Source of the DNA: Raja brachyura
Taxonomy: Eukaryota
Reading direction: 5' to 3'
Assembly: GCA_963514005.1 (NCBI GenBank)
Contig: OY740811.1
Coordinates: 18,104,001 to 18,168,000, forward strand
Length of the DNA stretch: 64,000 nt
Shown: positions 9,447 through 29,082 of the stretch, piece after piece
Layout of the letters: each line of letters opens with the position of its first letter
How positions within the stretch are numbered: position 1 is the first letter of the stretch
Position numbers and translations under genes: made by a program
Notes under the pieces: model-generated
Databases searched by the model: none
The model's input: the letters and a program-made list of their open reading frames with translations, nothing else
Told to the model about the DNA's origin: nothing

Positions 9447-9587
9447 CCCCATGTGGAAGGCCCGACTTGTGACACTTGTAAACGTGGCCACTTCTACCTG
9501 AGCACGGAGAACAGAGAGGGGTGCCTGCCATGTTTCTGCATGGGAGTGACCCAGCATTGCAGCAGCTCCCCCTACTACAGGAAACTG
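9447..9587 (+). CDS. HSPG2: Perlecan exon (PHVEGPTCDTCKRGHFYLSTENREGCLPCFCMGVTQHCSSSPYYRKL)
   Basis: ttccag acceptor, gtaggt donor, phase 0/0. The GCLPCFCMG motif is typical of perlecan domain III. Confidence 0.95.
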
Positions 9588-12144: not shown

Positions 12145-12339
12145 GTCGCCAGTCCATTTGTTCCACCAAATAACTTCCAGAACTTCTCCCTGGTGAGCCG
12201 CCAGCGCACGACGCACATCACCTCCGGATTCACGGTGACGGTGAGAGAAGGCCAGCCGCAGCTCTCCTTCGGGCGCTTTGGGCAGTACACGCAGGAGTCC
12301 TACTACTGGCAGCTTCCGGAAGTCTTTCAAGGGGATAAG
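12145..12339 (+). CDS. HSPG2: Perlecan exon, start of third laminin IV module (VASPFVPPNNFQNFSLV...ESYYWQLPEVFQGDK)
   Basis: ctgcag acceptor, AAG|gtaagg donor, 195 nt, phase 0/0, YWQLP..QGDK motif. Confidence 0.95.
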
Positions 12340-14819
12340 GTAAGGCCACAGTCCATTGTGCGCGAGAGCTTTAAAGGTTAAATCAAGAGGAGATCGCTGC
12401 GGTACTCATGATGGCGCTGTTAACCTGTTCACTGCCAAGATTCCTTTTCACTATTGCCCACGTTATGTTTTTTTCCAAGATTAAGGACGACTTGACTAAG
12501 CTAAAGCTAGTATAATCGGGGGTGGCAATGAGATGATAATACTCTGACCCAGGGATACACGGGGGTGACAATGAACTGGTTAAACAAACCGTTTGTGTTG
12601 TGTCGATTGAAGATTGAATTTCCGCACGCTGTCCCCATTGTGGTAACGATGTGCCGAGTTTCTGCCGTGTAACAATTCCTGCCGATTCCCGGCTGAGGAA
12701 GCAGGAATTGGTGCGGTCTCAGTGAAGCAGGGGCTCAATGTGAGGACACTGGCAAGGTCTTCACCAGGGCTTTACCAACCAACCACTTGTATCTCAGGCA
12801 GACTGCTCCAGTTCAGGAAGGGGTGAGGAGCAGTCAGGGACCGCAGTCGGGGATGTTTGATGAAGGGTCATGCTATATAGAACGGAGGAGATCGAAGTCC
12901 GCACTTGAGCTGTGCTTGGATTCTGAGAACAACTTTCGGAGCACTGTGGGAGCCTCACTGGCTCTGAAGAATGGCAGGAAGATTCCTGATGGCCACCAGT
13001 TCCTGGTCTCTGGTAAATGAGGGTAGCTGTGGTGAACGACAAGTGAGGCTGCTCCATTGTACTGTCGGAATTCCCATTTAATAATGGTCGCACGTCCTTG
13101 ACTATCACTCTGGCAAACCCCACCCCAACACTGAATAGTGAATATTGTCCTTTTCCTTCACAATGTACTTTTTCCAACCCAGCCTGGCTACGAATTACTG
13201 TTGACGGCATTGGGATAATGCTTATAAGTGAGTGTTTGTGAATATTATTTGAATTGATATATCTAACAGAGGACATTACAGGATGCTACAGACTCCGAAG
13301 GGGAATAGTGTTATCTGACTGCATCGATTTTTACAACTGATGGAGTAAAACATAAAATAAACCATCCGTTCATTGTAAACCAGTGAGTTCTGGTGAGGGG
13401 TGATCCCACACTACAGTTTTTGTTCACATTCCTTCTGCAATTCCAATGGAGATTGATCATTTGAAACTCAGACTTGAATTATTGGCCTCGCTGAAAACTT
13501 TGATCCATATTCAGTTCAAATTACCAAATTCCGAAGTCTAAAGGTTGGATTCCACCTGTGGTATATTCTGAGAATATCAAGACTGAGCATTTCACAAATA
13601 AATGGGAAGATCATCCCTGTTCCTGTGAAGCAAGCTCATTACTGTATGAAAACTGCGAGTTTAATAAATTATTAGCCTCTTTGGAGGGAGTTAGAACATC
13701 AAATGTGGGAAGTGCACCAACATTTTGAGGCGAGGCTTTTGTTATTTTTAGAAATGACCTCAAAACAATTCTCTTAAACAAAATAATTAATAGTTTATGT
13801 GGCCAATGCCTCGGTACATTGACCATACCTTCAGTGTCCACTGCCACTTTGGCCATGCTCGTGAGATGCTGAACTTTACATCTGTTCAAGTTGATAGACC
13901 TGCTTATGTACCAAGGCTGACATTAGTATCAGGAGGTTTCGTGTTCATATCTCACTGCTGTGATTTGAGCACAAAAATCTCAGCTTTGCTTGGTTGCAAT
14001 GCGACAGAGCAACACTGCCTTCCAATCAAGGCCCTAAACTGAGACCCGATCTAACTCTGTCAGTAAAGGATCCCAGTGCATTATCTCTGGTGTCCTGGTG
14101 ATTCCCTCAATTATTAGGATATAAAATAAAGCGCAGCATAGTGGTGTAACTAATGGAGCTGCTGCCTCACAGCGGCAAAGATCCAGATTTGATCCAGTCC
14201 TCGGGTGCTGTCTGTGTGGAGTTTGCAAGTTCTCCTTGTGACCGTGTGGGTTTCCTCCAGGTGCACCGGTTTCCTCCCACGTCCCAAAGTTGTGTGGGTT
14301 TGGAGATTATTTGGCCTCTGTAAATTGCCCCTAGAATGGAGTGAGTGGATGAAAAAGTGTGATAGCATTGAGTTTGTGTGAGTGGGTGATCGATGGACTG
14401 ATTCCATGCTGAATCCTTAATCTAAACTAAATCAGGTTAACTTGTCTAAATTGAGAGAACAAGGCACTGGGAATGGTTAGCAGATCAAGCAGCATATGGG
14501 GAGTAAGAAACAGAGTTAACTTTTCTTTTCCCTCCCCTGACCCACTGAAATAATTGCCAGACAACTGCAGCTCATTATTTTGCATTATCTGGGCATTGTA
14601 ATGTCACTGTTTCTGAGTTCCTCCTCTGTGCAAATTGGCAGCAGCAAATCGTTCATTTCAGCAATGACTGGACCCCTTGTTGGCCAGAAAGAGATCTGAT
14701 GCATCCTGAGAACGTGCGATAAAACTGGGCGGTGTATGGTCTGTTATCTTGAACCCTTTGTGAAACACTGGTCAAACTGTGCTGTTTACCTCTCACTGTT
14801 ATTCTGTCCCTTTCTGCAG

Positions 14820-14858
14820 CGGGAGGAATTCTTTGCTCGCATTAGACGTGGGCACAAG
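14820..14858 (+). CDS. HSPG2: Candidate cassette micro-exon (REEFFARIRRGHK)
   Basis: Strong acceptor ttctgtccctttctgcag, donor AAG|gtagag, 39 nt, open, phase 0/0 like the host intron. No transcript evidence. Confidence 0.5.
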
Positions 14859-15360
14859 GTAGAGTGATGCCGTCTCCGTGCTTTGATGGTTGTGTTTGCT
14901 TGAGTTTGTCCCTGCACTGATGACTTTAGCGTTAATAATGCCGTGTTTTTTGGAACATAACCGAGGTGGAATTGGATCTAAACATCCAGTGTCATGGGCC
15001 AGAGTACCTTTGTGAGCATGTGGTGTGTGTCTTTCTATTGTGCCCAAGTGCTGTGCAAAGATCTGGTGCTGCTAACGACCTGTTGGCTCTGATTAGGAGA
15101 GCGGACTGCATGCCAGTAATCTCCAGGTGGTTGTCAGACACACACAGGCACCTAGTGAAAGGAAAGGGCGATGAGCTAGAAATTTACATTTCCCCCAAGG
15201 AGAAAGCCCACATTTTCTCAAGCAGGGAAAGCAATGGTTGAAGGCATTGCACTACGATGAAAAGTTTATATTATGAGAACCAATTGACAATTTAATGAAT
15301 TACCTCCCCAATGATCTGTGGCCACCACCAGTTTACATTCTTACCACCTGCATGGCACTT

Positions 15361-15808
15361 GGGCGGCTTGGTGGCGCAGCGGTAGAGTTGCTGCCTTACA
15401 GCGTCAGAGAACCAGGTTCGATCCTGACTACGGGTGCTGTCTGCACGGAGTTTGTACATTCTCCCCGTGACCTGAAGAAGGGTGTCGACCCGAAACGTCG
15501 CCTATCTCCTTCGCTCCTTAGATGCTGCTGCACCCGCTGAGTTTCTCCAGCTTTTTGTGTAACCCTCGATTCTCCAGCATCTGCAGTTCCTTCTTTAACT
15601 CCCCGTGACCTTGTGGGTTTTCCCCGGGTGCTCTGGTTTCCTCCCACATTCCACACATGTACAGGTCAATTGACTTGGGTAAAAATTGTAAATTGTCCCG
15701 AGTGTGCAAGATAGAGATAGTGCATCGGAACCGCTAGTCAGCACGGACTCGGTGACCTGAAGGGCCTATTTCCACTATATCTATAAACTAAACGAAACTA
15801 AACTAAAA
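15361..15808 (+). mobile_element. tRNA-derived V-SINE (HE1-like) with nested Penelope-derived insertion
   Basis: tRNA-like head (TGGCGCAGCGG, GGTTCGATCC), V-core GGTTTCCTCCCACA, CR1-like tail with (AAACT)n. Nested insert at ~15474-15598. Confidence 0.85.
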
Positions 15809-16439
15809 CACCTTGGCTTTCTATTGTGATAGTGAAGTAAAACCCTTTCTTCCTGTTTTATTTTTTGATTGCCTTCTCTGCTATCCATTTTAATACTTTT
15901 AACAGCACCTATTTCCCAATTGCATTCGTTATTTAGTTGAAGCGTAAAACATCATCACTTGCTTTCCTTCCCCTTTACTCCGCGCTGCTATTGTCCACTG
16001 ATCACATTACCAGCTGGAGTAAATCTGGAGCTCAAAGGTCCTTCCTGACCAGTCGGAAGCTGGGATTTAAAATAGATCAGCACATGGACTAAACCCGAGC
16101 AGGCTGGAGTATCGCTTCTCAGCACATAAATATTGTCTGATTATCCAATGACATCTCCAAGTGAGAAGTTAGTGCAGCATACATTCCCAATATCTAAATT
16201 ATTTACACACTTTTCCCCAGCAACTCTTGTAGACTTTTCCTGGTGCTTGGGAACGGTACACTGGTGCCCCTCAACGAACACAGTTAATTTGATAGCTGAC
16301 ACCTGTATAAACTTTTAATGTTGCAAAGTGCACCAATTGTCCAGAAGAACATCAGCATTATATTTTGAGATGAGGTCACAAAATGAACTGTGACCAAAGG
16401 ATTAAGGCTCAAGGTAAAAGAGGAGAATGCGAAAAAGCA

Positions 16440-16870
16440 ACTTATAACCATATAACAATTACAGCATGGAAACAGGCCTTCTCGGCCCTTCCAGTCCGTG
16501 CCAACCATTTATTTTCCCCTAGTCCCATCTACCTGCACTCAGACCATACCCCTCCATTCCCTTCCCGTCCATATACCTATCCACTTTACTTTTAAATGTT
16601 AAAATCGATCCTGCCTCCACCACTTCTGCTGGAAGATCATTCCACACAGCCACCACTCTCTGAGTAAAGAAGTTCCCCCTCATGTTACCCCTAAACTTCT
16701 GTCCCTTAATTCTCATGTCATGCCCTCTTGCTTGAATCTTCCCTACCCTCAATGGGAAAAGCTTATCCACGTCAACTCTGTCTATCCCTTTCATCATTTT
16801 AAAGACCTCAATCAAATCCCCCCTTAACCTTCTGCGCTCCAAAGAATAAAGACCCAACTTGTTCAACCTT
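16440..16870 (-). mobile_element. CR1 LINE 3' fragment
   Basis: ERLNKLGLYSLERRRLRGDLIEVFK..FFTQRVVAVWNDLP. Confidence 0.9.
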
Positions 16871-17560
16871 TCGAGGAACTTCATGAGGAAACTTTCCATG
16901 AGCATGCTAATTATCAGACTTTCACTGATACTTGATCATCAGTCATTCATGAATATATTTGGAAAGATAGCGATAATTATGTTATTCCTCCTTAATACTA
17001 ATTGGAGGTCAGGTTCTCATAGACTCTGGAAATGTAATCTATCGAAATCATAGCCTGTTGTGTCTGTTGATGTGCAGCATGCTTTGAAAGACTATGTGTG
17101 ATGGATCATATTAAATTAAACCTGCTGTCTTGTTGAGCTACAGCTGGATCCCCTTTTGTAGTCTGGCTGACTATAAAACAATGGCCAGGTTGCATTTTCT
17201 GAGACTCAGCTTGCCAACGTTGCTGTTCTTGAATGCACATGTTTTTGGCGATGTTTTATTTGACTCACAAGCAACCGGCAGAGCAGAAAAGGACACAAAG
17301 TCCTGGAGTAACTCAGCGGGTCAGGCAGCATCACTGGAGAATATGGTCGGGACCCTTCTTTGGAGTCCGAAGAAGGGTCCTGACCCAAAATGTCACCTAT
17401 CCACGTTCTCCAGAGATGTTGCCTGGCCCACTGAGTTACTCCAGCACTTTATGTCCTTTTTTTAATAAACCAGCATCTGCACTTCCTTGTGTCTACTAGT
17501 TGCTGAGCGGAATGGTGGTTTTGTGGTTACTAAATAACATGCAGAATTACATTTTAATAG

Positions 17561-17662
17561 AAGGACCCATCTTTAACTGAGGAGCAACTGAGAAAGGATG
17601 CCGCCATCTGGGAACTCTTGAGCTCCTCTTCGTCGCATTCTAGGCTTAAAAGATCTTCAAAG
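17561..17662 (+). CDS. HSPG2: Candidate cassette exon (KDPSLTEEQLRKDAAIWELLSSSSSHSRLKRSSK)
   Basis: attttaatag acceptor, AAG|gtagca donor, 102 nt, open, phase 0/0. Shares a motif with the 20479 candidate; TGCATG at 17676. Confidence 0.55.
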
Positions 17663-18729
17663 GTAGCAGTAAAACTGCATGAGGAAGTCTGAAGCTTAAT
17701 TATTACTGACCGAACGTGGAGCAAGCAATATGCAAAGGAAATCTAACACCCTCCTTCATATCTGTCTAATCAGATTATTTTGTTATTTCCAAAACTGAGC
17801 TTTATTTGTTCTCCATTAGTTCTCTTGTCTTAAGTGTGGGAAACCAAGAAACAATATGTTCAGTTCACTGTATAAGATGGTGTGAGCTAACATTGCACAT
17901 AAGCTGTAAGTGGAGCATGTGAATTACTTGTTAACGAGGATCTGGTATTAATTTCTCAAGGACTTGATGAACCATGTATCCCACATACAAATCATAGGTT
18001 GTGGTCAAGCATTCTTCCACTCTAACACATGTTTTTATAAGGGCAAAACTGCTTTAACTTGGCATTTTTCTGGACATTATATTTTCCTTTAACACTATAG
18101 TTTACGAATAGGAATAAATTTGAGATTCTCGCACTCAATGGAAATGCTTCAACGGGTGACCATGAGAAAGGGTGTGATTCTGAAATTCGCAGTTGTGAAT
18201 AAATACAGTAAAACTCAAATAATAATGGTAAGGGCATCAAATAATAGTAAGGCTGGCAAATGGGGAAAAAAGGCAAGAGAATGGGTTGCGAGGGCCAAAT
18301 GACCAGCCACGATCAAATGGTGAAGCAGACTTGATGGGCCGAATGGCTTAATTCTGCTCCTTTGTCTGAAGATCTTATGACCTAATCGCTATCAGCTGTT
18401 TGACACTTTGATCAGAAACAGGGCCCCGACCCAAAAGGTTGTCTGTCCATTCCCTCCACAGATGCTGCCTGGCCCGCTGGGTTCCTCCAACACTTTGTTT
18501 CTATCTTGTGATTCCAGCATCTGCAGTTTCTGGTGTCCCAGTCTGACGCCCAACAGATTCGGCTTGGGCTCACCTGGTTCCCTTTACTCACCCACACCTC
18601 TATTTCAGAGCACCGTTTAAATTCATTGCGGACGCTGTTTCCACGCCTTTCTAAACTCACCAGGCCCTGTTCCAATATTCCTTTTACGCACACACTGGAA
18701 AATGTAACATGCTCCTCTGTAGCGTTCAT

Positions 18730-19692
18730 AAATTCACAAGTTGTAGGAGTAGAATTAGGCCATTTGGCCCCTCGAGTCTACTCCGCCATTCAATCATGGC
18801 TGATGTCTGCCACCTAATACCATTTTCCTGCCTTCTCCCCATAACCATTGACATCCGTGCTAATCAAGAATTTGTCTATCTCTGTCTTAAAACTATCCAC
18901 TGACTTGGATCATTGACCCTCTGTGGCAATGAGTTCCACAGATTAACTACCCTCTGACTAAAGAAGTTCCTCCTCACCTCCTTTCTAAAAGAGCATCCTT
19001 TAATTCTGAGGCTAAGACCTCTGGTCCTAGACTCTCCCACCAGTGGAAACATCCTTTCCACATCCACTCAATCTAGGCCTTTCATTATTCTGTAAGTTTC
19101 AATGAGGTCCCCCCTTAACCTTCTAAACTCCAGCGTGTAGAGGCCCAGTGCTGTCAAGTGCTCATCATGCTAACCCACTCATTCCTGGAACATTCTTGTA
19201 AACCTCCTCTGTATCCTCTCCAGAGCCAGCACATCCTTCCTCAGGTATGGGGCAATATATTCTCACAGTACTCCAAATGTGGCCTGACCAGAGCCTTATT
19301 GAGCCTCAACATTACATCTCTGTTTTTGTATTCCAGTCCTCTTGATATAAATGCTAGCATTGAATTTGCCTTCCTTACTACCAATGCAACTTCCAAATTA
19401 ACTTTTTGGGAGTCCTGCACCAGCACTCCCAAGTTTCTTTGCACCTTCGATTTATGGATTATCTCTCCATTTATATAATCTATGCCTTTATTCTTATTAC
19501 CAAAAAGCATGACTCTGCACTTTGCTATACTGAATTTCAACTGCCATTTCTCTGCCCACTCTCCTAACCTGTCCAAGTCTTTCTGCATTGTCCTTGCTTC
19601 CTCTACACTGCCTGCCCCCCCACCTATCTTAGCATCAACTGCAAACTTGGCCACAAAGCCTTCTATCCCCTTATCCAAATCATTAATATACA
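18730..19692 (-). mobile_element. CR1 LINE RT fragment (~1 kb)
   Basis: YINDLD..AKFA.D.KIGG..QKDLDRLGEWAEKWQ..ALVRPHLEYC and FFSQRVVNLWNSLP. Confidence 0.92.
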
Positions 19693-20029
19693 AATAAAAA
19701 TAAAAAGCAAATGAAGCACCCATCACATTCCATCATCTGTAGCCTCTTATGGGCTCCACTGAGCATTTCCCAGCCTCTGTCGCTACTTCCACCCCTCCCT
19801 CCCTCACCTGGGACTTCATCTGCCAGTGAACCTCTCCTCACCAAAATCCACCAGTCATTTGCCTTCTCCACCTCCATCACCTGGCTCCCTCCACTCCTTC
19901 AACCTAGATGCAGGGTCCTGACCTGAACCATCGACTGTCCATTTCCTCCACAGATGCTGCCTGACCCACCGAGTTCCTCCAGCAATTTAATGTTCAGCAT
20001 CTGCAGTCTCTTGTGTCTCCAAATGAACA

Positions 20030-20270
20030 ATGAATTGGTGTATCAATGGGAAGCCACAAAGACAGATGTGTACAGCAATTCGTTCTTTCCACGCACTATT
20101 AAAGCATGGAATAATCTCCACCAAGCCACGGTTGCCCAGCCAGATGCAACTAAATTTAAAGTGGCACTTTCTTCCCAATAACCCTCTCTGGCTAAACCCC
20201 TCCCTTCACCACCTCCAGTTTAAATTCCAGTTGGAATATTTTGGAGGACCAAGTAACCAAGAACCAAGGC
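20030..20270 (+). mobile_element. 3' end of a distinct non-LTR retrotransposon subfamily
   Basis: YSNSFFPRTIKAWNNL RT C-terminal motif, a stop codon, then a short ACCAAG-repeat tail. Confidence 0.55.
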
Positions 20271-20478
20271 AGCGGGTGCCGGATCATCAGTTTTACTGTT
20301 TTATTATTCACAAAACAGAGAAGCTTCTTTCTTCAAAAGAAAAATAAAATGTAAAGATTTGTGAAGAATCTGCATGGTTATTCTCTTATTGCCAGTGTTG
20401 TGATTTGCCGTGAGTGCCGTGGTAAACTGCAGGGATGATGACTTGTTATGGATGACTTGTCCCTTCACTTCCTTGTAG

Positions 20479-20778
20479 TCTGTGCCTGATATGGAAGAGC
20501 AGAAGCGTATTGACGATGAAGTATGGGCAATTATAACGGGTTTTGCTGCTGAGCGGTTGCACAAACCACACAGTCCTGTCGTGTCCAGCGGTAAAAATCA
20601 GTCCCGGTCATCGCGCCCCTTTTCTCGCCTGGCGTCAGCTGGACCTGCCGGGCCTCCTGCTCCCTCTGCCTCTCGCAAAAGTTCAGCTCATTCCGTATCC
20701 TCCCCCTCTTCAAGAACTGCCTCTTCCCATTCTTCTCTCTCCCCATCTCTGCTTTCTCAACCTGCCGACCACAAAAAG
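20479..20778 (+). CDS. HSPG2: Candidate cassette exon, Ser/Pro-rich 100 aa (SVPDMEEQKRIDDEVWAIITGF...SLLSQPADHKK)
   Basis: cccttcacttccttgtag acceptor, AAG|gtatgg donor, exactly 300 nt, open, phase 0/0, no recognisable repeat. Overlaps ORF 20482..20823. Confidence 0.65.
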
Positions 20779-21134
20779 GTATGGAACTTTTTGCATTATG
20801 AAAAGTGTAAATCACCCCTTTAAGTACAGTCCTTGCATTCTACACAAAGTGTGTCGGAAGGAACTGCATGCAGATGCTGGTTTAATAGACACAAAAAGCT
20901 GGAGTAACTCAGCGGAACAGGTCGCATCTCTGGAGAGAAGGAATGGGTGACTCTTCGGGTCGAGACCCTTCTTCAGATATTCGAGACCACTCTTTTGGTG
21001 GAGGGTGGAACAAAACTATGCATCACAATGCAAGCTAAGATAAAGAATGCCTTTGATGAGGATCAGTGGAGTAAATGGTTAAGGTTAGCCAAAGATAGTA
21101 ACAAGTCTAACATTGTAAAAATTGTATATTAAAT

Positions 21135-21572
21135 GGTCTGATTAGGTTAACATATGAGGAGCGTTTGATGGCTCTGGGCCTGTACTTGCTGGAGTTTAGA
21201 AAGATGAGGGGTGGATCCCATTGAAACCTACCGAATAATGAAAGGTCTAGTGGATGTGAAGAAGATGTTTCCAATAATGGGAGAGTCTAGCACCAGAGTG
21301 CTACTGCCTCAGAATAAGAAGACTTGCCTTTCAAATGGGAACGAGGAGGAATTTACTTAGCCAGAGGGTGGTGAATCTGTGAAACTCATTGCCACAGTCA
21401 TTTGGTTTTCTAAAGCAAAGATTGGTAGGTTCTTGATTAATAAGGGCGTCAAAGGTTATGGGGGAAAAGGCAGGAGACTGGAGTTGAGGGGGAAAAATAG
21501 GCCAGCCTCGATCAAATGGCAGAGCAGACTCGATGGAATGAATGCCTAATTCTGCTCCTATGTCTTATGGTC
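21135..21572 (+). mobile_element. CR1 LINE 3' fragment
   Basis: GAGGAGCGTTTGATGGCTCTGGGCCTGTAC..CAGAGGGTGGTGAATCTGTG..AATTCTGCTCCTATGTCTTATGG. Confidence 0.85.
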
Positions 21573-22226
21573 TGATGGCAAACGGGCCACAGGTGCCTTC
21601 AAGAGATTGGTGCATCATGTCAGAGTCGAGACCTGGGGAGAAGCATCAGGTGAACACAGAAATGAATTTGCGATCAGTCCCTGTGGAGAGAAGTGAGGAG
21701 GTGTTTGGCGTACGACTCATTGGGGGCAGTTGCAGAGAAGCCCAGTGTAGTACTGAGACAGTCCCCCACAAAGTGTAGTGTTTAGGTGCCGTGAGTAGAA
21801 AAAATATTAAATTGCTCCTCAACTCTTTGCGCAACATTAAGTGCAGATAGGAACTCCTCAGCTGATGGTAGGCTTGAGTTGCTTTCTTTGGAGCATTGAA
21901 GACTGATTGAGGAATTCGGAGTTATGAGGGACATTGTTGGAGTGGAGAGTAGAGGTGTCCTTGAACATTGGACATTGAGGAAGAATGTTTTCCCCCAGAC
22001 AGTGTTTGGAAGCTGCAACTGTCAGTTTTAGTTTAGTTTATTGAGTATGTGGAGGAGGCGGGTACTCTGACAAAGTTTAAGCAGTGTTGAGATGACCGCA
22101 TGAAACTCCATACCAAGTGCTCATCACCCTCTGAGTTACACCAGCACTTTGTGTCCCTCTTTGTAAAACAGTATCTGCAGTTCCTTGTTTCTACTCTCTT
22201 TTCTAAGTTGTTGATTTTCCATGCAG

Positions 22227-22316
22227 ATGAAACACTTCTCTAAGATCCCCTCACTACAAGCCGAGGAATCAGCAAATCTTATTGCTTCCTCCGTGTGGGG
22301 CCCAAGACCGGAGAAG
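22227..22316 (+). CDS. HSPG2: Candidate cassette exon (MKHFSKIPSLQAEESANLIASSVWGPRPEK)
   Basis: ttgattttccatgcag acceptor, AAG|gtagcc donor, 90 nt, open, phase 0/0. TGCATG at 22332 and 22360. Confidence 0.55.
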
Positions 22317-22679
22317 GTAGCCACGGTTAGCTGCATGGAAAGTCTCAATCTATGTGACCTGCATGTCTATGGTGTTATGGTCTTCAGAAGGCTGGCTGAT
22401 AGAATATGTTAGAAGTACTCAGCAGGTCAGGCATCGTCCGTGGAGAGAGAAAGAGCCTTAATATTTTAGCGTGACTACGGTTCATTGAGCTGAAATGTTA
22501 GTGTTATTTCCATCGCCGTAAACCTGCTGAATATTTATCCAGATTGTGTTTCCCAGTTCAGTGTTTTGCTTTTTACCAGCCGGCTGCCTATTGAATTACA
22601 AACTGCAAACCTGCGAGCGGTATTATTCCTGTTTAGCAGAAGCCACTGCTTCGAATGCTTACAAAACCCGCCACATGCA

Positions 22680-22976
22680 TGTGGTAGGTGCAGTGATAGA
22701 GCTGCTGCCTCACAGCGCCAGAGACCTGGGTTCGATCCTGACCTCGGGTGCTGTCCGTTTGGAATTTGCACGTTCTCCCTGTGACCATGTGGGTTTTATC
22801 CGGGTGCTCCCACATCTAAAAGACGTGCGGGTTTGCAGTTTAATTGGCCTCTATAAATTACCCTTGGTGTGAAAAAGTGGGATAATATAAAGCTAATATG
22901 AATGGGCGATGATGGTCAGTGTGGACTGAAGGGCCTCATTCCACGCTGTATCCATTAATCAATCAATCAATCAATT
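22680..22976 (+). mobile_element. V-SINE with (TCAA)n tail
   Basis: B box GGTTCGATCC and V-core. Similar + strand copies at ~14131-14430, 32140-32425, 39140-39425, 40775-41047 and 42878-43086. Confidence 0.8.
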
Positions 22977-25291
22977 CAATGCACTGGGCCATCATTATAA
23001 ACATTCAACAAAGCAAATAGTTTGTGTGCAATATTGTAATAACTGAGGCCCAAAAAGGTGGCCCATTCTGTTTGTGATTTTAGCATGGATCTACATTCCC
23101 TAATGAGGAGCATGTTTATTTGATTGATTTTCTTTGTTAGAATTTATATTTTGTGTGGCTTTGCTGTGGATTGGCCCAGACATATGTGTTTAAACTTGCT
23201 AGCGGATATCATTTGCAAATTGTATACGACTGTCCTTATTAACCATTGAGCAGAGGTGACCCCCTCCAGAGGGGACACTTGTACTCCTTGGATCTTTAGA
23301 TTTCGTTTAGTTTTAGGTTTATGATTATTATTATCACATGTACCGAGGTACAATGAAAAGCTTTGTTTTGCGTGCAATCCAAACAGATCAGATATGCCAT
23401 ACATAGACACAATCAAGTCAAACTCAAATAATACAGATGGAGCAATGGGGACGAAACAGAGTGCAGAATATATATCTCGGCGTTGAAGCACATCAATTCC
23501 ATAGACAAACTCTGATATGTTCAATGGGTAGAGGTGAATCAGTCAATACCCTAGCGCAATATATCAGCCTCTTCCTGACTTTTCATCGGAAGTAATTTGG
23601 GTTGTTGTGTATGTCCACTGTAACCTGGTGGATTGATGTTGTTGGCCACTATTTCTAACGGCTGCTATGACAACACTGGGTGTAAGTGAACCATTGGCAA
23701 TATTAAAGGCCTGCATCGGTATGATGATACATTTGATTGGCGGGTGGGTAATTAATTAATTAATTGGATGCGGGGTCGAAAGATTATCAGAGTGATAGTG
23801 AGAGGAGCCAAGAAATGTAACTGTATTTCCCCAACACTGGTTGATAAAACACCCCATTTTGGAGCCTAACAAGCCCACAAGATCTACATGCACTCATGCC
23901 CCTTCTATTGAAAGTGCACTGCCAGAACCCTGCCGACCACCTGCCACGTTTGTACCAGATTCCTACTATTGGAACAACCAGTTAACTATCTTGATTTAAG
24001 TTTCTATCTCTTCCAAATGGAGACTAACCCTGGTTCTAAACATCAACAAAAAAAACACACAAAGTGTTGGAGTAACTCAGCGAGTCAGGCAGCTTCTCTG
24101 GAGAACATGAACATGAATAGGTGATGTTTCAGGTCAGGACCCTTCTTCCTCACCTATCCAAGTTATCCAGAGGTGCTGCCTGATCATTTGAGTTGCTCCA
24201 GCACTCTGTAACTTTTCTTGCAAAACGTAATCTGCAGTTCCTTGCATCTCTGGTTTTAAACATGGCTGAAAGGCTATTTTATGTCCCCAGTTCATCCAGC
24301 CATTTCCCCGATTCATAAAATAGAAGGGAGATCCTTTACACACCCGTTGGGGATTAAACAAGATTGCATGTATTCTGATTTGTAACACACACACACTGGT
24401 AGCAATGTTCCCTCTTCAGGTTAATTTTTACAGCAGAACAAGTGGCATTGATTAGAGTAATCTGAGAAGTTGCAGATCGCGGGGACATGGAGAATGAATT
24501 GGGGAAATAAAGTCACGTTCCAGACATGTTTAAAACCAGGGCTGGTTTCCATCTAGAGTATAAGAAATATTTTCTCTCTTTAGTCCACCACTTCCCATTG
24601 TAAAAGCGTGTTCGCAGCTCATTTTTAATCTGGAGTACGCTTAGATTCTTGTAGTCATTGTTTGCAAAATAAAATGATTTTTCAGAAAGATAAATTCCAG
24701 AATAAAATCGAAGTCCTGTCTGGTCTTCTCGACCTGCATCTTCAACTCTTAAGACTTTCTGTTTGTTGGATATGCATTCCGTCTCTGGTGTATAGAAGTT
24801 CGAGCAACTTGCATCTCTTAATAGTTCGGCTTAGTGTCACTCAAGTTTGTAAATCGGATTCTGCGTGTGGTCTGCACTCAGCTGACCATGTTAATGAGGT
24901 GAAATAGCAATGATTCAGCTAATAGGAGAGGAGGAGATGGAAATAGTCTTGAGGCCAGAAACTCAATGGGAAGGAAAGCAGCCAATATTTCAAGGGGTTA
25001 ACTTTTCATCGGAGCTAAGAATGCGCAATTAAACAAATCTCATGCCTGTCTGTGTGCACCTTTTTTTTGCATAACCTTGTAAACAAAAACGCAGTACTTC
25101 TAATTCACAGTTACAGTTTAAGTTTTGAAACAAAGTCCAGCTCTCTTGTTAAAAAAGTGTCATGTTAACAACACAGCTGTGCTCAATTTATCAACAGGAA
25201 ATGAGGGATGGATACTTGGGGGGGGGGGGGGGGGGGGAACGACTCTGCTTTGTGCAATCCTAGGGTCAGAATTTGAGCCGTTTTGCTGACC

Positions 25292-25444
25292 ATGGCGTTG
25301 CTTGCTGTTCTGTGTAAACTTTCTCTGTTCATCTTGTCTCTGCCTCTTTCTCTGTCCCAGTATGCTCTGCTTTACAAGGGCTTCAGCCTCCTGCCTGAAA
25401 ACAATTTCTATTGGCGACTTCCACATCAGTACCTGGGCAACAAG
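25292..25444 (+). CDS. HSPG2: Candidate alternative exon: signal-peptide first exon (ATG 25292) or internal exon 25361-25444 (YALLYKGFSLLPENNFYWRLPHQYLGNK)
   Basis: Paralogous to the end of exon 12145-12339 (FYWRLPHQYLGNK vs YYWQLPEVFQGDK). AAG|gtaacc phase-0 donor, ACCATGG Kozak context, polypyrimidine tract plus cag ending at 25360. Confidence 0.75.
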
Positions 25445-26552
25445 GTAACCAATAGATTCCGGTAGCGTCTTAGAAAGCCTTTGTTTCGCGCATTTGACTT
25501 TTCGTGCCAATTGGATTGAGTGATGTCTTCATCTAATTTATCATGATTGTGCCTTTGCGTCCGTACCTTTCAACTGGTTGAAATATCCTCAGTGGTGGGG
25601 GGGGGGGGGGAACGCGTCAAAGAGTTGGAATAATGCACTTCTTTTTGTTAGCCAATATTCGCAGTTCCTCGTTTCTACACTACGTATTACACTAATCCTC
25701 AACGGCAACAAGTTTCATGGCGATTCAAACTGATAACACAATCAGGAATAACTCGCTGTTTGAAGAAGGGTCTCGACCTGAAACTGAAACTGTCTGACCC
25801 GTTGAGTTCCTGTAGCTTTTTGTGTCTATATGTCACCATCTTGAGCAACTGGTGCAATTCTCCATATTACACTGGTATTGTCAGTAGAATAACGTGATGG
25901 AAGCTCCCCATGGCTGATGCCAGTCTGTGGTGAGCTACTGTTAATATCTTCCTCTGCAAGCAAGCTTTGGATGTTGATATGAAATGTCAGGAAGTCTTTT
26001 GAAAGATCCCACAGCTAGTGTTTACCTGCCATCCTTCCACTTCCAGCTTCAAACAGCGAATCAAGGAACATCTTCATTCAGTGGCAGCAACAGTTGGTAG
26101 AAAATGCCAGGCTGGCTCCCAACCCTGGCATTCCCCCATTGTTCCACTTCCCTAGACCCACGCTCCGTTCCCGAGAGCTGCACTCCATTCCCGAGAACCA
26201 CGCTCTGTTCCACAGTTACTGACCAACCAGCCCCTGAGCTAACCAAGCTATGTGCAGTGCCATGGTAGTTAATAAAAGCAGGGAATGCATTATTCAGAAA
26301 ATTTAAGTTTCTGAAAAGTACAAATTGAATCTACAATATATAAATGTATATTCAACAGCTCAAAATGTACCTTGTATAAATATCAGCTAACTATAAAATA
26401 GCTCACAATGTTTTTGCAGTTCTCTACCTTGGCAGCGCACCCAAGTGTTGACTGAACGGTGTACCGGTGAGACGAGTTCTCTTGCAATGCCGATGATCCT
26501 GTTGTAACGAGGGTGTGAAGCAACCTGGTAACTGGTCTGTCCTTTCCCTCAG

Positions 26553-26645
26553 GTGACATCCTACGGCGGACGCCTTCGTTACACGCTCTCCTACGACTCG
26601 GGGTTCCGGGGAACTGCAGTACCAGATGCGGATGTCCAGATCATT
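26553..26645 (+). CDS. HSPG2: Perlecan exon, Laminin_B (VTSYGGRLRYTLSYDSGFRGTAVPDADVQII)
   Basis: ccctcag acceptor, gtacgt donor, phase 0/0, SYGG.LRY motif. Confidence 0.95.
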
Positions 26646-27794
26646 GTACGTGGTCGCACCTCTCTCCAACAGCCCGTGCCTCATCCAAGTTTGATGGCAC
26701 TTTCCCGACGTTAAGATTTCTGCCGTGTATTTTGTGCACTGGGAACAGAAAGTTGGGAGTTGTGAAGTTAGCAAGGAAATGGGTTCGGACCTTGTCTGGA
26801 GAGGTGACCAGACATGGGTCATGCGTCAGCTTCTAACACCGGAGGCTAGTTCCAGCATCAACCTAACAGATCATTTAACTGAAGGGCCGAATGGCCTGTT
26901 TCCATACTGCATCTCTGAACTAAGTTAAAATAAACTAAACTGAGATAGTGTAGCCCTCTCAATCATTGAGTGTGGGACTCTCATTATTCCTTCTCCCCCA
27001 AAGATTTTTTGAAAGTTTCCTTGAGCAAACAATCGGGCATCTCTCTCTTTCCCCCTCAAAAAACAAGGCTTTGTTTTATGATGCTTTGGGAATAATTGTC
27101 ATTTATTCACCCTCTAGGTCATTTTGTTGTCCCTGACCCAAAATGAATCCATCTGAAGAAAGGTCCTGACCTGAAACGTCACCTATCCACGCTCTCCAGA
27201 AATGCTGCCTGACCCGCTGGATTACTTTTGTTTTTTCTTCATAAACCAGTAGTTCCTTGTTTCTACAATCTTCCTCCTTTTTTTTTATTGTAGCATTTAT
27301 TTGAATTTCAGTTTTATAATTCTACAATGTAATTTGCTGTTTTGTCCGCATTAGACTGTAAGAGGGGAACATATAGGGGCTAAGCTATAGGTCAGCCTGT
27401 GTGTAGGTAAGGCCCTCTGCAGCACACAGCACTCTTGCTTGATTAGTACAGGTGTCAGAGGTTATGGGGAGAAGACAGGAGAATGGGGTTAGGAGGGAGA
27501 GATGGAGCAGCCATGATTGAATGGCGGAGTAGACCTGATGGGCTGAACGGCTATTCCTTATGAACGTGTGTCACATTCCAAGCTTCCCATTGCCCCCAAA
27601 CTTATGGCTGGAAGAACCATTGGGTTGCTTCGAGTAGCACAACAGAACAGAAAATAATGTGGATCAGGGAGCCAAGCAACAGTATGTGACATTTATTTAT
27701 GTTTCATATGTCTTTCCACACCAGCATGAAAATAAAACGCCAGAACATAAAATAGGACCAGGCCTTTGGGTCACTCCTGCCATTCAACAAGACC

Positions 27795-28164: not shown

Positions 28165-28248
28165 GGTAACGATATCACCTTGGTTACCTACCACACTCAT
28201 CAGCTGCGGCCGAGAGAGACCATGAGCTTTGAGGTCATGTTCAAGGAG
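28165..28248 (+). CDS. HSPG2: Perlecan exon (GNDITLVTYHTHQLRPRETMSFEVMFKE)
   Basis: tttcag acceptor, GAG|gtaaag donor, phase 0/0. Confidence 0.93.
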
Positions 28249-28851: not shown

Positions 28852-29082
28852 CAACTTTGGATGCGTCCAGATGGACAGCCGGCCACCAGGGAGCATCTGC
28901 TGATGGTCCTCGCTGACCTGGATGAAGTCCTCATCCGGGCCACCTACTCGACTGACATGATCTCTGCCAGCCTCTCTGACGTGAGCATGGAGATCGCAGT
29001 GCCCTTCTACACCAGCCTGGGCCAGGCACTGGAGGTGGAGGAATGCCATTGCCCGCAGGGCTACCATGGCTTGTCTTGTCAG
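28852..29082 (+). CDS. HSPG2: Perlecan exon (QLWMRPDGQPATREHLLMVLADLDEVLIRAT...VEECHCPQGYHGLSCQ)
   Basis: Near-identical to the perlecan motif RPDGQPATREHLLM.LADLDE.LIRAT. cacacag acceptor, CAG|gtgact donor. Confidence 0.97.

Follow-up and report, generated by a model that had tools for sequence, protein, structure and literature searches.

A candidate five-exon cassette within the third L4 domain of perlecan, predicted in the skate Raja brachyura and other vertebrates

Alternative splicing of the C. elegans perlecan gene unc-52 affects mainly domain IV. In unc-52 and in Drosophila trol, alternative splicing tunes the size and function of perlecan, according to the excerpted text of a review (PMC6266596) that treats vertebrate perlecan as one 97-exon chain of 4,391 residues with few, ill-defined variants. 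The same excerpts describe shorter human perlecans, namely miniperl and the domain I and domain V forms of HMC-1 mast cells, which arise through splicing, alternative starts and processing (PMC6266596); as presented there, the short human HSPG2 variants concern domains I and V and not an insert in domain III. The RBPMS-activated Hspg2 exon of smooth muscle is also a regulated vertebrate perlecan cassette (PMC6613909, PMC10570038, both in partial text). In the available portions of these reports it comprises just one exon, about 51 nt long, with primers that map near residue 190, at the border of domains I and II. Domain III contains L4 domains, and the L4 domain is described in an extract of another study (PMC6744579) as a β-sandwich inserted into an LE domain with the LE disulfides left intact, its function being stated there as unknown.

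The locus analyzed here differs from these systems in carrying a multi-exon insert within domain III. Among PMC Creative Commons articles and bioRxiv full texts, we found no description of an insert in domain III of vertebrate perlecan. The RefSeq perlecan models XP_032903838.1 (Amblyraja radiata), XP_069802948.1 (frog) and XP_020951153.1 (pig) have the cassette in the same place and order and with the same last exon, and the cassette-bearing RefSeq models are plain 'isoform X' entries with no feature, name or function attached. The cassette is present in predicted records yet apparently undescribed in papers. Compared with the skate cassette, mammalian models show neither exon 4 nor a full furin motif, and the parsed bird models show no insert. 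RBPMS was considered as a regulator of the cassette and rejected, because the published exon, as far as the partial reports describe it, differs and the density of tandem CAC near the cassette is low (0-2 per 250 nt).

The window, a stretch of 64,000 nucleotides from Raja brachyura (contig OY740811.1, positions 18,104,001 to 18,168,000), carries a perlecan (HSPG2) gene of the skate-like type, as identified by sequence comparison. Twenty window segments were collinear in tblastn with A. radiata perlecan at 75-100% identity, and the L4/LE array of domain III is followed by Ig repeats in the order of known perlecan. The exon that closes the third L4 domain (exon D) matched the perlecan chain PDB 9I5A with an E value of 2.4e-23, 9I5B being likewise a solved perlecan chain. 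Two exons of domain I lie on the same strand about 123 kb before the window (contig positions 17980603-17982865). Inside the third L4 domain, positions 12340-26552 form an interval of 14.2 kb. When exon D was searched against cluster representatives, 597 matches came back; among the best 150 of these 597, which were examined, a frog protein, a poison-frog fragment and a sturgeon protein had an insert ending in a homologue of 25361-25444. The frog insert was then used on the window by tblastn, which located further exons, and a protein search with it returned 93 proteins among 355 candidates. Searches of the skate's own genome did not find a second copy of exon 5 or of exon 3, and the ESM Atlas gave no usable match to exon 3. 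A splice-scan exon candidate at 19134-19244 was dropped, having no counterpart in orthologues. The cassette introns (20880-24150 and others) are abundant in SINE/LINE-like repeats, as judged from very high contig depth. A search for RNA records over 20400-26700 listed none, and such a long query could mask a small RNA. In a near relative with about 98% identical DNA, the contig matches listed included an Ala>Thr change at 25304, an Asp>His change at 20767 and silent changes at 20514 and 25423.

All exons discussed here lie on the + strand. The constitutive exon at 9447-9587, assigned by Pfam and tblastn, encodes cysteines 1-3 of the LE domain hosting the third L4. Exon A (12145-12339; 64/65 residues as in A. 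radiata) encodes the first strands of this L4 and matches residues 78-126 of PDB 9I5A/9I5B (E 0.005), a region upstream of the Pfam start; its last 28 codons, termed A', form the first copy of a duplicated segment. The cassette that follows comprises five exons and 205 amino acids, of which 199 are as in A. radiata XP_032903838.1, and all five exons have AG/GT borders, lengths that are multiples of three, phase 0 and no stops. Exon 1 (14820-14858; 39 nt) encodes 13 basic and aromatic residues, all 13 identical in A. radiata, and was also located by tblastn with the frog insert. Exon 2 (17561-17662; 102 nt, 34 amino acids, 34/34 identical) encodes a predicted helix followed by R-L-K-R (17642-17653), a predicted furin/proprotein convertase site whose motif is kept in nearly all non-mammals that have the exon. 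At its tandem acceptor (17558-17563) two AG dinucleotides stand 3 nt apart, the second lying 3 nt downstream; frog models vary by one residue at the same junction, echoing this arrangement. Exon 3 (20479-20778; 300 nt, 100 amino acids, 96/100 identical; tblastn with sturgeon, E 1e-10) begins with a conserved acidic, Trp-bearing helix and continues as a Ser/Pro-rich linker that is likely disordered. The starts of exon 2 (17561-17662) and exon 3 (20479-20560) encode look-alike acidic helices with Trp, which in tetrapods is kept only in the exon 3 copy; this likeness could possibly reflect an old exon duplication. Exon 4 (22227-22316; 90 nt) encodes 30 further linker residues, 28 of them identical in A. 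radiata.

Exon 5 (25361-25444; 84 nt) encodes 28 residues, the second copy of the L4 segment. Its acceptor region (25278-25360), delimited by sequence scan, consists of an AG-free zone and a polypyrimidine tract, with branch-point-like motifs that place the A at 25289 and at 25331; the same region contains the ATG at 25292 and the frame that had been read as a signal peptide. Poly-G runs flank the exon at 25219-25237 and 25596-25610; such runs can influence splicing. Three constitutive exons of the L4 lie downstream of the cassette: exon B (26553-26645; 31/31 to A. radiata) continues the domain, exon C (28165-28248) was placed by tblastn to A. radiata perlecan, and exon D (28852-29082), which matches Pfam Laminin_B at positions 75-136 (E 1.7e-16), completes the L4 and supplies LE cysteine number four.

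The sequence-only reading had proposed that exon 5 splices in frame to the downstream L4 exon, and this agrees with the sequence: the CAG acceptor ends at 25360 and positions 25361-25444, in phase 0/0, join 26553-26645. Its proposal that the exon repeats part of 12145-12339 was likewise borne out, with 12/26 residues matching the frog first copy (tblastn E 0.001 against the window). Exon 5 covers Pfam Laminin_B positions 1-12, at an E value of 0.19 that is below the cut-off, and exon B covers positions 13-43; a PDB search with the 51-aa peptide returned 0 matches. Conservation was expressed as the mean modal frequency over 44 aligned vertebrate perlecans, and was 0.77 for exon 5 and, as the highest value within the insert, 0.81 for exon 1; constitutive parts gave 0.75-0.81, and exons 2-4 gave 0.47-0.59, with exon 3 falling from 0.59 in its first part to 0.47. 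By sequence, exon 5 is more than a chance frame, being 28/28 identical to A. radiata and conserved at the constitutive level. The first copy A' reached 0.78, a value that cannot tell which copy folds into the domain, because the skipped form needs A'. Across 43 sequences exon 5 shared 11.2/28 residues with the first copy and 11.5/28 with the second L4 domain, so that it is equally near to both and the source of the duplication cannot be assigned.

Positions 25361-25444 are almost certainly an internal cassette exon, and likely the last of five optional, frame-keeping exons encoding about 205 amino acids in the third L4 domain of perlecan. This is the second alternative of the sequence-only reading, an internal 84-nt exon restoring the domain after an insert, for which orthologous models were found in 54 species (hand-picked, one model each). 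The linker that had been supposed to precede exon 5 was partly confirmed, in that an insert does precede it, though as four exons and not as one linker. Models with the insert occur in chimaera, sharks, rays, bichir, paddlefish, gar, teleosts and coelacanth, in frogs, caecilians, a salamander, turtles and lizards, and among mammals in pig, horse, cats, goat, cattle, bats and a whale. The mammalian models keep exons 1, 2, 3 and 5, and exon 4 was not seen in them; the matches to the frog insert (93 of 355 candidates) contained nothing from human or mouse. By model comparison, the cassette is conserved from chimaera to mammals and is known from predicted gene models.

Both inclusion and skipping are represented in these records. 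From 282 proteins, 14 under 3,000 amino acids were set aside, and the remaining 268 were classified into 183 with the insert, 83 without it and two that could not be parsed. Every one of the 183 parsed insert-bearing models ends the insert in exon 5 (179 with the strict motif, four with a one-residue variant), including partial inserts made up of, for example, exon 5 alone or exons 1 and 5. Two exceptions stand outside this count, a bullfrog prediction of 1,300 amino acids with exon 2 only and a Trachemys model without exon 5 and exons B and C. Six of the eight A. radiata models examined include the insert and two skip it, and in the frog cluster 11 include it and four skip it among the 15 members listed. 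The totals among the 268 are not frequencies, since one species often contributes many models and the insert itself served as the search query. No insert was present in any of 32 parsed bird models (P0236-P0258, P0349-P0360), which by the models' sequences could reflect either loss or missing annotation. All of these entries are computational predictions (RefSeq XP and GenBank) that in part draw on one another's proteins. As a rule, a RefSeq model is based on RNA-seq together with proteins of relatives.

At the end of exon 2, the motif R-X-K/R-R, which we take to be the furin consensus, is present in 39 of the 41 non-mammals having exon 2 and missing in two turtles; exon 2 itself is missing from five listed models. 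The position X and the flanks are variable, and the neighbouring residues change fast. In mammals the full R-X-K/R-R occurs in 0/8 sequences and the shorter R-X-X-R in 5/8, one of the eight having been read by eye. Judging from the motif, a convertase would probably cleave after R-L-K-R in this species.

For a structural view of the long form, A. radiata residues 1378-1506 were folded as a complex with residues 1507-1823, the two predicted furin products, with no alignment used. The complex scored 0.82, the best of three controls scored 0.01, at least 54% of the contacts were common to the runs and the partner pLDDT was at least 56. The mark applied to this score is reached by 51/78 solved and 2/108 mismatched microbial pairs, and for eukaryotes by 39/65 solved pairs without a like complex, 71/105 of all solved pairs and 2/126 unrelated pairs; the pass may nevertheless be memory, since the halves of the domain resemble the solved structures 9I5A, 9I5B and 4YEP. 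In the predicted complex, confident contacts connect exon 5 (1638-1663) and the C-terminal strands to residues 1379-1433, and Cys1381 is placed against Cys1791 as a cysteine pair across the two chains. The predicted first copy (1435-1462) made no confident contacts, and the placement of residues not named here is uncertain. With moderate confidence, the model suggests that exon 5, and not the first copy, fills the slot in the domain, in a setup that favours exon 5 because it shares a chain with the C-terminal half.

An L4 starting at exon 5 would be incomplete according to this prediction, with residues 1379-1433 forming the confident interface and Cys1381 pairing from upstream. The claim that exon 5 rebuilds an intact domain start was thus upheld for the Pfam start and not for the whole structural L4 domain, as about 55 upstream residues are predicted in the same fold. 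An AlphaFold prediction of the sturgeon model was set aside, its pLDDT being below 50 over residues 168-451 and the record repeating half of the domain.

We propose, with good confidence, that the cassette is optional, that exon 5 replaces the first copy when the cassette is included, and that a furin cut yields two chains that remain joined. Skipping would give ordinary perlecan and inclusion the long form, in which the first strands, encoded by exon A, would pack together with exon 5 and the exons that follow it. A tail made up of the first copy, the basic helix of exon 1 and exon 2 would thereby be pushed out, and the Ser/Pro linker would be looped out as well. Convertase cleavage after R-L-K-R would then leave two chains held by the shared β-sandwich and by one LE disulfide. 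This two-chain perlecan would carry a Ser/Pro linker and a basic tail that becomes exposed. Both parts would probably change perlecan binding or stretching; a sugar, a receptor or perlecan itself is our guess for the partner of the tail. That all parsed inserts end in exon 5 is expected if this exon must close the domain. The LG3 domain of laminin alpha-2 is reportedly processed by furin with its fragments staying associated, and resembles our proposal in that a convertase cut in a β-sandwich loop leaves the chains joined and changes binding. Unlike laminin alpha-2 LG3, optional exons here add both the predicted site and a spare part of the domain.

The same observations could be explained by an insert that serves as a flexible spacer or binding loop, with the first copy staying in place, exon 5 being spare or binding another perlecan, and cleavage being incidental. 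The equal conservation of both copies (0.78 and 0.77) fits such a role, as do mammals that keep exons 1, 2, 3 and 5 without the full furin motif, and models that hold exon 5 alone or exons 1 and 5 without the furin exon. We nevertheless consider a spacer improbable, given that all parsed inserts terminate in exon 5, that the predicted fold puts exon 5 in the slot, and that R-X-K/R-R is kept in 39/41 non-mammals amid fast-changing neighbours. Far less credible is an origin of the cassette in faulty annotation or in splicing noise at low level, in favour of which one may cite that every record is a prediction, that the excerpted review of HSPG2 variants (PMC6266596) makes no mention of a cassette, and that the matches to the frog insert include no human or mouse record. 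Such an origin, which we regard as exceedingly unlikely, hardly accommodates five open phase-0 exons whose order is kept from chimaera to mammals, an exon 5 with protein conservation equal to constitutive exons, a 39-nt exon at 0.81, or a tandem acceptor of exon 2 that is mirrored by one-residue frog variants.

The remaining alternative places an internal promoter upstream of exon 5, so that a secreted short perlecan would begin at the ATG at 25292 and the same DNA would act as both first and internal exon. COL18A1, where variants arise from alternative promoters according to an excerpt of PMC4859157, is a system of this type. The ACC-ATG-G start was found at 25289-25295 as claimed, with a frame that runs on for 51 codons without a stop until the GT at 25445; the Kozak context is strong and the upstream 23 codons are open, hydrophobic and of signal-peptide length. 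Among 153 pairings of a strong acceptor with a reading frame across the window, only four combine an in-frame ATG with a hydrophobic stretch, both Kozak positions being present only here, and the mean hydropathy is equalled by 4.6% of 20,000 base shuffles. However, those shuffles gave an open frame in 76% of cases and an equal hydrophobic 9-residue peak in 30%, leaving the hydrophobic codons weakly more than chance. The 69 nt before exon 5 are 72% pyrimidine and lie inside an 81-nt AG-free zone, so the competing suggestion, that the hydrophobic stretch is the polypyrimidine tract, largely holds, and intron read-through before exon 3 in predictions from other species (P0174, P0211, P0342) encodes similar hydrophobic peptides. 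The CpG observed/expected ratio is 0.44 against 0.41 for the window, neither a CpG island nor a TATA box was found, and the upstream 290 nt hold five ATGs. A product from exon 5 is also predicted to miss about 55 fold-completing residues and to carry an unpaired cysteine. Gene models could miss a minor, tissue-restricted start, but 0/282 proteins examined start at exon 5, the one start close to it being that of a sturgeon prediction, ahead of exon 4. A weak search of proteins of 91-2,000 amino acids with the 51-aa peptide gave 0/44 candidates. No protein starting at exon 5 was among the members listed in the frog-insert search (2,366-7,531 amino acids), and the skate-seeded search (2,292-7,296 amino acids) yielded nine matches from ten candidates, all of at least 4,169 amino acids, among the members listed. 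Kozak context aside, the signal-peptide first exon gained no support; unlike for COL18A1, the DNA and models examined here yielded no short model and no sign of a promoter or of a conserved start. We consider the short secreted form very unlikely.

That short form had also been expected to lack the N-terminal heparan sulfate sites. Mammalian perlecan has three N-terminal Ser-Gly-Asp sugar sites. In this genome Ser-Gly was absent from the two domain I exons examined, so that a loss of N-terminal heparan sulfate sites through a short form is not shown for the skate lineage, and this part of the earlier reading fell with the Ser-Gly-Asp sites themselves. The exons have Glu-Gly-Ser where other vertebrates carry Ser-Gly-Asp. 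Residues 26-125 contained no Ser-Gly in 7/7 shark, skate and ray models and one to three in the other 13 models. On this sequence evidence, elasmobranch perlecan may be without the classic N-terminal heparan sulfate chains; the missing Ser-Gly-Asp is a lineage trait with no bearing on orthology. At the cassette site, the invertebrate matches listed showed no insert carrying a second copy, as inspected by eye over the 60 upstream residues.

Basement membranes, cartilage and muscle all require perlecan. A conserved cassette in its gene probably means a second, longer perlecan with new surfaces, made up of two chains outside mammals, and the naturally occurring insert, with its duplicated segment, opens L4 function to experimental test. 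If the human gene has the cassette exons, the exon panels used for Schwartz-Jampel syndrome and dyssegmental dysplasia would overlook them. Going beyond the favoured two-chain form, we offer as a rather unlikely speculation that the cassette has been a splice-controlled strand-exchange switch since the first jawed vertebrates. Exon 5 would displace the first copy, and furin would free it with the basic helix as a tail that binds sugars or receptors or slots into another perlecan, and once a single disulfide opened, a C-terminal perlecan lacking domains I and II would be set free. Such a switch, if true, would be the first known role for an L4 domain and would reveal an unstudied form of perlecan, mammals included.
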